Shown piece by piece: positions 2,824 through 7,936 of a stretch of DNA of 16,776 bases. Each line of letters opens with the position of its first letter. The first letter of the stretch is position 1. Below the pieces are notes generated by a model. The model did not search any database and was not told where the DNA came from. It saw only the letters and a list, made by a program, of their open reading frames with translations. The position numbers were made by a program, and so were the translations under genes. This DNA comes from a virus. The stretch lies in UHGV virus genome UHGV-1844214. One strand, 5' to 3'.

Positions 2824-3431
2824 GCGGCCTCACTTCTGCTATTTCGCAGGTCTTTGAGTTTCTGCTGATACTCCGCCTTGATGGCCCTGCACTCTTCGAC
2901 AGTCCAGCGATGGCGGTTATGGTTTGATTCGATTTCGTCTACTGCTTCCTGCCCGATGCGATTAATCAGTTCGACGCGATACGGAACGAGATTTCCGCTT
3001 TTGTGCTGGTTGCACACCACGCATTGCTTGTGAATATTGCGTTCATCAAATCGGAGTTGAGGTGCCGCAGCAGTTGTCCGGTAATGTCCGGCATCCCACT
3101 GAGCAGACGTGAGCGTTCCGCACGAGATACATGGTAAGTCGCGGTCTCTTTCTCTGATGAAGGCGTTTACGGCTTGTTGGGCTTGTTTAATCCAGTAACT
3201 GCGGGGCTTTAAGGCGAGTTTTCGAATCTTAAGTTTATCTTTCTGTCTCTGATCCTCTCGTCGTCGTTTCTTCTCTGCTGCTTTTTCCGCTTTTTCGCGT
3301 TCTTTACTTCGTCGTTCGAGTGCTATCTTGGTTCCACACTCTGGAGAGCACCACCACTGATTAGCGAATGCAGGGTGAAACCATTCCCGACATTCATCGT
3401 TTTTACATCGTCTTCGCGCTGGTTTAGCCAT
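2820..3431 (-). CDS. ninG: NinG / Rap recombination-associated protein (203 aa)
   Basis: ORF-track protein [41 protein letters not shown]... with Cys-rich N-terminus, lambda NinG-like; start overlaps the ninF stop. Confidence 0.9.
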
Positions 3432-5383: not shown

Positions 5384-6820
5384 TCAGAATCCTCCTTTCT
5401 TCTTGGACTGCGGTTCCTCGCGTTCACGGCGGCGCATTTCAGCAGACTGTTGGTCTGTGTCATAAATAGCGCCATTTGCCTGAATGCAATACACCGTGCC
5501 GGTATTGCCATGACGATTGAGACGAAGGATTAGTTCAGTTTCACCAGGTGGAACACTGTCATCAAAAGCGCCTTCACGATGGATCCCCACCCAATAATCG
5601 CAATCCTGTTCAATCTGCCCTGTATCTCGTGAGTCACTTGGTAATGGGCGTTTATTGGTTCGGCTTTCCAGTGCGCGGTTAAGCTGCGTCAGAAGCACAA
5701 CAACGCAATCAAGCTCTTTGGCAAGGTTCTTCAGTCCTTTGGTGATCATGCCGTAGGCAAGGTCGTTGCGATCGGCCTTCTCAGCGGTCATTAGTGTCAG
5801 GTAATCGACCAGAATCATGCCAACACATCCTTTTTCTCGCTTGATTCGACGGCTTTCGCTGACGATTTGAGCCAGAGATAATCCCGGCGTGTCGTCGATG
5901 TAAAGCAGGTCGATTTCACTCAAGCGATTGGCTGTTTCGATCGCCCTGTTGAAGTCACCATCGTAATCACCCTGATAGCCGTCATCAGCGTCATTTGTCG
6001 CCGGAAGGTAAAAAATATTCGGGTTAACACCTGACTTCTGTCCTACCAGTTTTTCCAGTATCTGGTCACCGGGCATTTCAAGGCTGAACATCAGAGCAGG
6101 CTTTTTCTCATGCACTGCGCAGTTGATTGCCATCTGGCTGTATAGTGTCGTTTTCCCCATCTTAGGGCGAGCGCCAATGACAAACAGAGAGCCTTTCACC
6201 AGACCTTTCGGTGACAGCATCCTGTCCAGCGATGGGATCCCTGTGCTCATTCCTCGCTGTTCGCCTGACGGGTCAAATCGCTTCTCAAGGTCGCTAACCC
6301 AGTCTTCCATGACCTCACCAAATGAGCGAAGGCCGCGACGCGATCCGGTTTTTGCATGGTCTGTCAGTTGCGTGAAAATCGCCTGAATAGCTTCGTACTT
6401 CTGCGTTGCAGTCATTCCGTTGCGGGAATAGAGCAATTCCGTCGCTTCAGTCATGCGGTTGATGGCGTAGCGTTCCATTGCGGTTTCACGAACCTGCATT
6501 GCATAGGCAACGATGTTTGCGGCGCTTGGCGTGTTCTTTGCGATCTCAGCGATATAAGCAAAACCGCCAACAGACGCCGTTAACGATTTACGCTCCAGTT
6601 CATCGAAAAGCGTCAGGCCATCTACTGGCTTTTGCTCCCGGTGCATTCTGGTTATTTCTTCGAAAAGGATTTTGTGTGGTCGGCTGTAAAATGAATCAGG
6701 CTTCAGCATCGCCAGAACTTTCTGGACGCGCTCACTGCTGTCATCATCCAGAAGCAATCCACCAATCACCGCCTGCTCTGCCTCGATGCTATGGGGCGGC
6801 GCATAAAAATTATCGGTCAT
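5384..6820 (-). CDS. Replicative DNA helicase, DnaB family (about 478 aa)
   Basis: Walker A GARPKMGKTT, DnaB-type N-terminal domain (HSIEAEQAVIGGLLLD), Walker B-like LILVDYL; replaces lambda P. Start taken at ATG 6820 (GAGGGTG upstream), overlapping the O-like stop by 11 nt; the ORF-track start at 6835 is a GTG. Confidence 0.85.
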   Translation of the reverse strand: MTDNFYAPPHSIEAEQAVIGGLLLDDDSSERVQKVLAMLKPDSFYSRPHKILFEEITRMHREQKPVDGLTLFDELERKSLTASVGGFAYIAEIAKNTPSAANIVAYAMQVRETAMERYAINRMTEATELLYSRNGMTATQKYEAIQAIFTQLTDHAKTGSRRGLRSFGEVMEDWVSDLEKRFDPSGEQRGMSTGIPSLDRMLSPKGLVKGSLFVIGARPKMGKTTLYSQMAINCAVHEKKPALMFSLEMPGDQILEKLVGQKSGVNPNIFYLPATNDADDGYQGDYDGDFNRAIETANRLSEIDLLYIDDTPGLSLAQIVSESRRIKREKGCVGMILVDYLTLMTAEKADRNDLAYGMITKGLKNLAKELDCVVVLLTQLNRALESRTNKRPLPSDSRDTGQIEQDCDYWVGIHREGAFDDSVPPGETELILRLNRHGNTGTVYCIQANGAIYDTDQQSAEMRRREREEPQSKKKGGF

Positions 6821-7709
6821 CGTGTTCACCCTCACGAACTTTCAGGTAGGTATTGTCGTTAAGCAGGAAATCAAATCCCTTTTTGTGCCAGACAGTTCCG
6901 CGTTGATGGTTTGGACGCTCTTCGAACATCCATCGGCAATTTTCGCCTACGTAGCTCAAATAATTTCTCCAGTCCTGCATCGTGAACCCATGCCCGTCAA
7001 GCTGGCGGGTTATCACTCCGGCTTTGCGCCAGAACGTTCGGATCTGGTTTTTACGCTTGTCATTCAGTGCGCGGATTCTTGGCGCTTCAGGAAGGATTTC
7101 GTGGTAAGCATCGACAACATCCTGACAGCTGACGGAAGGTTTTTTCTTGTCAGACTTTTTGTCTGCTGTGGCACTCTCTAATACGTCAGTATTAGAGATA
7201 ATATTATTATATTCTTTATCTGTGGTAATTTGCTGGTAATCTGCTGGTACAGCATTGCTTACAGGCATTGGTATTGCTGGCTTTGAGGTGGTAATTTGCT
7301 GGTAATCTGCTGGTACAAAATTTGACTGATAATCGTCATATTTCTCTACCGAGAAAACTGAGAATTTACCGTGTGAAACCCAGTCAATCATGCCGAGTTT
7401 TTTGAACTTTCTAAGCAGGTACTGAACGCGATCTGGTTTGAGTCCTGTTTCAAACGCCAGAGAGTTTCTACCGCCAAGTAGCTTCCCTCTGCCTACCAGA
7501 ATTTCTCCTGCGTCAGTCATTACATACTCAGGCGTATGCTTTGCTTTGAGGATTAAGTGAACCCACAGATGCGCAGCTTCTGCGTCCTTGTAAAACGGCA
7601 CATCCATAATTTTACGGTGCAGCAAGGCATACCCCTTACCGCTGCTTTGATGCGGTTGTTGTAGCCTTCTGGCCTCTCTGGCTTCGGCTAGATTAGATAT
7701 GTTACTCAT
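6810..7709 (-). CDS. Replication initiator, O-like (299 aa), with iterons inside the coding sequence
   Basis: Sits directly upstream of the helicase in the lambda O position; coding sequence contains direct repeats (peptide [10 protein letters not shown] encoded twice) and an adjacent AT-rich tract; conserved phage replisome-organiser-like C-terminus. Confidence 0.8.
7175..7317. repeat. Putative origin of replication: iteron array plus flanking AT-rich tract inside the O-like gene
   Basis: The 30-bp unit GTGGTAATTTGCTGGTAATCTGCTGGTACA occurs identically at 7222-7251 and 7288-7317, with degenerate TGCTGG copies between; each unit contains repeated TGCTGGTA sub-motifs. AT-rich stretch at 7175-7220. 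Confidence 0.6.
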
Positions 7710-7848
7710 GACCTTTCTCCTTCTGCATCAGCTTCACCTTTTCCAACTCAGCCCGGAATCGACCAGGCTGCTTGAAGCTGGACAGGAAGCGATCACGTAG
7801 TATGTGTTTGTGAATTTTGTCCTGGTAAGGACTGAGTTGTTTTGTCAT
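7702..7848 (-). CDS. Hypothetical small basic protein (48 aa), stop overlapping the O-like start
   Basis: Hand translation from ATG 7848 (AGGAG 5 nt upstream): [48 protein letters not shown]; stop TAA overlaps the O-like ATG (ATGAGTAA). Not in the ORF track (under 60 aa). Confidence 0.4.
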
Positions 7849-7859
7849 AATGACTCCTG

Positions 7860-7936
7860 TGGATTGATCCAGTAATGACCTCAGAACTCCATCTGGATTT
7901 GATCAGAACGCTCGGTTGCCGCCGGGCGTTTTTTAT
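7860..7936 (+). ncRNA. oop: oop antisense RNA (about 77 nt) overlapping the 3' end of cII
   Basis: Plus strand ...GATCCAGTAATGACCTCAGAACTCCATCTGGATTTGATCAGAACGCTCGGTTGCCGCCGGGCGTTTTTTATT matches lambda oop as recalled, including the terminator hairpin and U-tract; convergent with cII. Confidence 0.7.

Follow-up and report, generated by a model that had tools for sequence, protein, structure and literature searches.

In this phage, the middle part of the O-like gene holds repeats, an AT-rich tract and a palindrome that very probably form the replication origin of a lambdoid module of the HK022/VT2-Sakai ('Eru3') type, placed within the linker of its own initiator gene; both sequence comparison and analogy with known origins point to this reading. 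An earlier note on the same DNA, made from its letters alone, had proposed a likely origin here, and the comparison supports that proposal. The same coordinates are already labelled in the public record. In GenBank AP000422 (phage VT2-Sakai), 'ori iteron 1' and 'ori iteron 2' are each entered as misc_binding, and they correspond exactly to positions 7288-7317 and 7222-7251 of the window (the whole stretch of 16,776 nucleotides that was analysed). The O gene of the window is 99% identical to its counterparts in VT2-Sakai, the Stx1 phage of Morioka V526, Stx2 phage 86, mEp235, HK630 and HK022, for VT2-Sakai and HK022 in both DNA and protein. The origin reading is thus already known from the annotation of a 99%-identical phage, and the element is an ordinary feature and no discovery, because the same two 30-bp units are already called 'ori iterons' in GenBank.

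Related phages carry comparable annotation. At the homologous place, rep_origin features are recorded in phage L and Sf6, with the wordings 'putative origin of replication' and 'repeat region reminiscent of the phage lambda origin'. Six 11-bp repeats were described as the likely origin of phage L (Zaworski et al. 2021, PMC8022706), and genetic evidence that the replication region of L replaces that of P22 only as a whole is cited in the same paper. The module was named 'Eru3' by Llarena et al. 2021 (PMC8044961), where the origin is not discussed and the word 'iteron' has 0 occurrences. Our literature search found no paper with binding, unwinding or replication experiments on an HK022-type origin.

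Many prophages are amplified by the HK022/Eru3 module, among them the Stx2a prophage of E. coli O157:H7 Sakai, and toxin output depends on phage replication. The 166-bp element has a match in 374 of 5,426 complete E. coli genomes, and in 219 of these the match covers at least 80% of it. Mechanistic work on origins of Stx phages has so far dealt with lambda-type O/P origins only (PMC7466680). What is new here is incremental, namely a comparative map for the Eru3/HK022 type, with an 11-bp unit, a family-wide 66-bp phasing, an invariant CCA read in three frames, repeats that follow the N-terminal domain (N-domain) of the initiator and a covarying palindrome, to which a remote link to the SPP1 organiser is added. 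This map is precise and testable, and it leaves the presumed nature of the element as before.

Architecture of the repeat array

The element lies in the middle of the O-like gene, at codons 131-179, and the array starts at gene nt 393. In the direction of O transcription the iterons come first, followed by the AT-rich tract and then by the palindrome:

6810-7709, minus strand: O-like gene, 299 codons, 99% identical to HK022 O and VT2-Sakai O
7323-7709, minus strand: codons 1-129 of the O-like gene, N-terminal winged-helix-like domain, the putative iteron-binding domain
7285-7317, minus strand: iteron cluster 1, registers I1-I3 (TGTACCAGCAG ATTACCAGCAA ATTACCACCTC), three 11-bp direct repeats containing the first 30-bp unit (7288-7317)
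7252-7284, minus strand: spacer of 33 bp, registers I4-I6 (AAAGCCAGCAA TACCAATGCCT GTAAGCAATGC), which sets the clusters 66 bp (6 x 11) apart
7219-7251, minus strand: iteron cluster 2, registers I7-I9 (TGTACCAGCAG ATTACCAGCAA ATTACCACAGA), containing the second 30-bp unit (7222-7251)
7199-7218, minus strand: AT-rich tract, O-sense TAAAGAATATAATAATATTA, 20 nt with 5% GC, A-rich on the O-sense strand, the putative DNA-unwinding element (DUE)
7175-7198, no strand: perfect palindrome TCTCTAATAC-TGAC-GTATTAGAGA, with 10-nt arms and a 4-nt loop
6810-7174, minus strand: C-terminal part of the O-like gene, the putative helicase-interaction domain
5384-6835, minus strand: DnaB-like replicative helicase gene, 483 codons (Pfam DnaB, E = 3.5e-31; DnaB_C, E = 3e-60)

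The earlier note had described two identical 30-bp units made of repeated sub-motifs, and both statements hold. The 30-mers at 7222-7251 and 7288-7317 are identical to each other, and with up to three mismatches allowed they remain the only two copies in the window, where 0 are expected (200 shuffles). TRF detected a period of 11 at 7218-7249 and at 7289-7315, one within each unit, and the exact 8-mer TACCAGCA occurs six times in the 16.8-kb window, four of the six being in the array region, all on the minus strand. Read in the O sense, the array region consists of nine 11-nt registers, I1-I9, in which the 11-mers are direct repeats without internal dyad symmetry. To judge from the sequence, the working unit is most likely the 11-bp direct repeat, in a 3 + 3 arrangement, and not the 30-bp unit.

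Two other statements of the earlier note needed correction. Degenerate copies had been placed between the units; one in-phase copy, AAAGCCAGCAA (7274-7284), is indeed present, but the remaining 22 nt have no resemblance to the repeat, and the spacer is the least conserved part across relatives. Likewise, an AT-rich stretch had been placed at 7175-7220, and the GC content of 7175-7224 is as low as 0.24; this stretch is now refined into the 5%-GC tract at 7199-7218 and the palindrome at 7175-7198, which the note had missed. The palindrome is part of the origin element, and with it the order of repeats, AT-rich tract and palindrome is that of ori-lambda and of the P22 origin, in line with the ori-lambda-like layout inside O that had been suggested. 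An Rfam scan of the whole window matched no family. A role of the conserved CCACA end of the last repeat as a DnaA box was considered and rejected: no TTWTNCACA with at most one mismatch occurs in 7100-7400, and the window as a whole has fewer copies of the motif than expected.

Palindrome and repeats across related loci

The comparison set comprised 9 phage records, 37 genome loci of different Enterobacterales species and two Firmicute MAGs; conservation and co-variation were counted over 41 arrays (loci), and self-match lags over 36 genome loci. For the palindrome, 16 distinct variants from related loci were aligned without gaps. Compensatory changes were found at 10 of 10 stem pairs, with 97.5% of cells paired, and 0 of 500 shuffles were as good; when the pairing partner was shifted by 1-3 columns, pairing fell to 28-48%. 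The palindrome variant goes with the C-terminal side of the mosaic junction described below, not with the iteron class. At the level of sequence, pairing that is kept in this way is suggestive of a hairpin or cruciform in the DNA, or else of a symmetric site for a protein, inherited together with the C-terminal module.

Hairpin pairing kept by covariation also speaks for cis-regulation unrelated to an origin, in which the repeats would be autoregulatory or titration sites for O, and the palindrome with its T-rich run would be an antisense intrinsic terminator, or a hairpin in the mRNA. Indeed, a pattern scan scored 7175-7198 as terminator-like on the + strand (antisense to O), and the record of phage L has predicted minus-strand terminators at the same place. 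However, the stem is AT-rich, with 3 G-C pairs, and the tail is no clean U-tract; the number of terminator-like sites was near chance (2 found versus 1.2 expected), and no promoter-like site was found by the pattern scan in 6800-7900. Moreover, the same palindrome and A/T asymmetry are present in lambda and P22, the model origins of this layout, and regulation of this kind would leave unexplained why repeats that segregate with the N-domain lie beside a DUE-like tract. We consider such a regulatory function, in place of an origin, improbable.

The segregation itself is seen in natural recombinants. Over all pairs of the 41 loci, iteron identity had a Spearman rho of 0.61 with N-domain identity and of -0.02 with C-domain identity. 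In 11 pairs with a common C-domain (>90%) and unlike N-domains (<70%), the iterons were 61% identical and the palindromes the same (97%), and in 18 pairs with a common N-domain and unlike C-domains, the iterons were kept, at 97.5% identity. Between the window and Sf6 gene 43, DNA identity is ~50% as far as gene nt ~500 and ~100% over the rest of the gene, and this step places the window/Sf6 mosaic junction at the AT-rich tract and palindrome. Erwinia phage vB_EhrS_59 (Ehr59) has an HK022-type N-domain, 3 + 3 eleven-mers and the palindrome, together with a C-domain 70% identical to that of lambda O (E = 6e-63) and a next gene annotated as lambda-P type. The matching of iteron type to N-domain, which the earlier note had read from one sequence, thus recurs as co-variation across the recombinants. 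This co-segregation supports, short of proof, recognition of the iterons by the N-domain; the correlation alone is no proof, because linked inheritance contributes to it.

The position of the window/Sf6 junction and the many recombinant combinations of N- and C-domains could also be taken to mean that repeats and palindrome are chiefly a boundary or hot spot of recombination for the exchange of lambdoid modules, without a role in initiation. A junction between the domains is, however, expected anyway, because only such recombinants are viable, and a boundary would leave unexplained why the repeats are phased at 11 bp with an invariant CCA, why the spacing is fixed at 66 bp and why the six copies are homogenised within a genome. 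Since a boundary is compatible with origin function and no true alternative to it, we regard a boundary without initiation as very improbable.

Conservation within the array supports the origin reading further. CCA at positions 5-7 was found in 41/41 arrays in each of the six repeats (I1-I3 and I7-I9), and the spacer registers showed no CCA-like conservation across the 41 arrays. Since 11 is not divisible by 3, each unit presents its three copies in three codon frames; in the window, CCA codes for Pro133 in one of them and falls within Tyr136-Gln137 and within Thr140-Thr141 in the other two. An invariant CCA that is read in three frames indicates a constraint on DNA, not on peptide. The two units within one genome are 93% identical (mean), the same unit is 73% identical between genomes, and the spacer 56%; units that are more alike within than between genomes are what one would predict when every copy has to fit a single co-evolving binding protein. 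The best self-match lag was exactly 66 bp in 32 of the 36 genome loci, and the exceptions were two loci with 12-13-bp repeat spacing and two Firmicute loci with 8-10 contiguous 11-bp repeats. The 11-bp repeat has the variants TGTCCAACGGA in L and Sf6, TGTCCAGCCGA in CobraSix-like phages, GTGCCAACAGA in phages of Klebsiella, Yersinia and Erwinia, and GTACCAGCAGA in the window. By eye, dyad symmetry inside the 11-mer (TCC..GGA) was seen in the phage L class only and is not general.

The repeats do encode a duplicated 10-residue peptide, as had been noted (residues 132-141 and 154-163 of the O-like protein), and every enterobacterial homolog has a duplication of ~10 residues at this alignment position, with a sequence that differs by lineage. 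Selection of this linker peptide as protein, for example as a docking site for the helicase or a host factor, with the DNA repeat as its coding image only, is scarcely credible and is rejected because the same 11-mer is read in three frames, giving non-repeating tripeptides around a CCA invariant in 6 x 41 copies, while within a genome the two units agree at all synonymous sites and between genomes they diverge, the peptide is in a predicted disordered region and the Firmicute relatives have their eleven-mers contiguous. The duplicated peptide is a by-product of coding through the repeats.

The O-like protein and a proposed course of initiation

The region has a lambdoid immunity layout, with a cII homolog upstream of the O-like gene and the helicase gene directly downstream, overlapping the end of O (O stop at 6810; the annotated helicase start of VT2-Sakai corresponds to window 6820). 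The O-like protein matches PHROG 345, 'replication initiation O-like', and its N-domain matches phrog_2514, 'DnaD-like helicase loader' (E = 4e-19). The earlier note had called the N-domain non-lambda, and this proved correct: by BLASTP, no similarity of the window protein to lambda O could be detected (E = 4.8), and Pfam Phage_rep_O was not matched even at E <= 10. None of the Pfam initiator families was matched at threshold, NCBIfam gave no match, and a PDB sequence search with the O-like protein returned nothing meaningful. Pfam Phage_rep_org_N (PF09681) was hit below threshold by the window protein (E = 0.12, 12.8 bits versus the 23.3-bit cut-off), and independently matched by 9 of 40 remote homologs of its N-domain (best E = 5.2e-6). 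From these sequences the N-domain appears distantly related to SPP1-type replisome organisers. For the C-domain, a weak similarity to the C-domain of P22 gp18 was seen (E = 1e-4), and gp18 likewise has a helicase of the DnaB type as its partner.

An AF2 model built on a 40-sequence alignment gave pLDDT ~90 for residues 26-128, predicted as helix-helix-beta-hairpin-helix-helix-wing, and pLDDT < 50 for residues 131-180. On the latter value, codons 131-179, which hold the entire origin, encode a linker between the domains that is predicted to be disordered. In a Foldseek search of the PDB with the N-domain, the top matches were all winged helix-turn-helix (wHTH) DNA-binding domains (CodY, CAP, SmtB/ArsR, MarR and TubR). 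Because these matches are weak (E >= 2.7e-3), we treat the modelled fold as consistent with a DNA-binding wHTH domain and not as proof of DNA binding.

In the mechanism that we propose, the winged-helix N-domain would bind the 11-mers and build an O-some-like nucleoprotein complex. With one site per helical turn and the triplets six turns apart, all six sites would lie on one face of the DNA; a binding stoichiometry of one monomer per 11-mer, or any other, is pure inference. The complex, acting along with negative supercoiling and with rightward transcription across the gene, would melt the adjacent AT-rich tract, the C-terminal domain would then bring the DnaB-type helicase that the phage itself encodes, in the next gene, to the melted DNA, and host primase and Pol III would take over after helicase loading. 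As a hairpin or cruciform, the palindrome may mark or stabilise the distal limit of the melted stretch.

Comparison with known origins

The closest systems are HK022, VT2-Sakai (Sp5), the Stx1 phage and mEp235, in which the gene order is the same as in the window (cII, orf48, O, DnaB-like helicase), and from HK022 and VT2-Sakai we see no difference of substance. In the VT2-Sakai annotation each 30-bp unit is one iteron, and the 11-bp substructure and the palindrome are unmentioned. The gene-18-type loci of phage L, ST64T, Sf6 and HK620 (MW013502, AF547987) have a homologous initiator of 45-66% identity, six 11-bp direct repeats (3 + 3) at 66-bp spacing and an AT-rich tract. The palindrome sequence of phage L and Sf6 is the same as in the window, and Sf6 has both C-domain and palindrome nearly identical to those of the window. 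These loci differ in their iterons, TGTCCAACGGA in the L/Sf6 type versus GTACCAGCAGA / TTACCAGCAAA in the window type, which matches the divergent N-domain.

In lambda O, origin recognition is the task of the N-half, and the C-half is matched to the helicase or loader. A similar division is seen in window-type loci, where the origin repeats go with the N-half, and the partner (helicase or loader) goes with the C-half. In lambda and P22 the origin also lies inside the initiator gene (starting at nt 349 and 353, respectively, versus 393 in the window), with iterons, AT-rich tract and palindrome in the same order and arms of ~10-12 nt; the palindrome at the equivalent place has 12-nt arms and a 4-nt loop in lambda and is CCCCCTAAAGGGGG in P22. 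In contrast, lambda and P22 have four iterons of ~19-20 bp, each an internal inverted repeat, spaced 20/24/23 bp apart, whereas the window has six 11-bp direct repeats in one orientation. Each lambda iteron is bound by O as a dimer (PMC7466680). The N-domain of P22 gp18 has no detectable similarity to that of the window, but the partner in the window is a DnaB-like helicase, as in P22 and unlike lambda, where it is the P loader.

A more distant likeness is to iteron plasmids (RepA, pi, TrfA), in which helically phased direct repeats of ~17-22 bp are bound by winged-helix initiators next to an AT-rich DUE. The window too has direct repeats in helical phase beside an AT-rich tract, but its iterons are 11 bp long, the origin is inside coding sequence and, unlike typical iteron plasmids, there is no DnaA box (at most one mismatch) in 7100-7400.

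The oriL of SPP1 combines direct repeats with an AT-rich DUE inside gene 38, where the organiser G38P binds, and SPP1 uses a helicase of the DnaB family (PMC6316719). The window likewise has direct repeats as well as an AT-rich tract in the initiator's own gene, and a phage helicase of the DnaB family. It differs from SPP1 in that no gene lies between O and the helicase, whereas SPP1 has a separate loader gene (G39P), and in that no second copy of the origin was seen in the window. It is possible, though in our view doubtful, that HK022-type O represents a distinct class of lambdoid initiator, tied to SPP1-like organisers and not to lambda O, in which monomers would sit head-to-tail on 11-bp direct repeats, one per helical turn, in two three-protomer arrays exactly six turns apart, and in which the covarying palindrome would be a required hairpin that loads the DnaB-type helicase without a dedicated loader.

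Repeat arrays and the spacer between clusters

Among the 41 arrays compared, the final repeat ahead of the AT-rich tract (I9, window 7219-7229) nearly always ended in CCACA, whichever class of iteron the array carried, with C in 93% and A in 100% of the arrays (n = 41). This ending is loosely reminiscent of how a DnaA box ends, but a search of window 7100-7400 for TTWTNCACA, allowing at most one mismatch, returned no match. Moreover, the spacer (window 7252-7284 and its equivalents in related loci), which is variable elsewhere, contained short stretches shared across iteron classes, namely CGCAAAsCC at the junction of the third and fourth 11-nt registers (I3/I4) and GGCT...GAGGT ahead of the second cluster; these may stem from coding or from a further binding site.

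Repeat spacing itself was found to vary. Two related loci, L035 (Silvania) and L038 (Leclercia), carry TTACCA repeats at about 2880-3080 with a spacing of 12-13 bp, not 11, and a cluster-to-cluster distance of 80 bp instead of the usual 66. In two Firmicute MAGs (L050, 2870-2961; L051, 2797-2914), 8-10 contiguous 11-bp repeats followed by an AT-rich stretch come after distant relatives of the window N-domain (32-33% identity), and on these sequences the 11-bp unit is suggested to be a trait of a wider initiator family.

Other features in the window

Two further features were considered, and no Rfam family was reported in the window:
7837-7870, reverse complement: match to the 33-bp sequence that PMC3349717 gives as conserved at the oop promoter/5' end
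6822-7181, plus strand: ORF of 119 codons that runs antisense to the O C-domain and that AP005153 lists as a hypothetical protein

Because the first of these matches the conserved oop sequence, the window probably has an oop-like antisense RNA opposite cII. The ORF is probably spurious.

The palindrome and its travelling partners

At all 10 stem positions of the palindrome adjoining the AT-rich tract (window 7175-7198), compensatory changes among 16 sequence variants keep the pairing perfect. The palindrome goes with the sequence on the C-terminal side of the mosaic junction in O, and not with the iterons. Locus L010 (1486-3137, Erwinia phage vB_EhrS_59) holds a natural chimera: the N-domain is of the HK022 type, with 3 + 3 repeats of 11 bp, the C-domain joined to it is a lambda-O C-domain (70% identity), and the next gene is of the lambda P type. 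Similar loci are L037, L039, L040 and L049, and in all five the AT tract ahead of the palindrome is just 9 nt.

A pattern scan also picked out the palindrome together with the following TAATATTATT (window 7175-7208, plus strand) as a terminator-like site antisense to O. In the origin palindromes of lambda and P22, a T-rich run likewise follows on the antisense strand.
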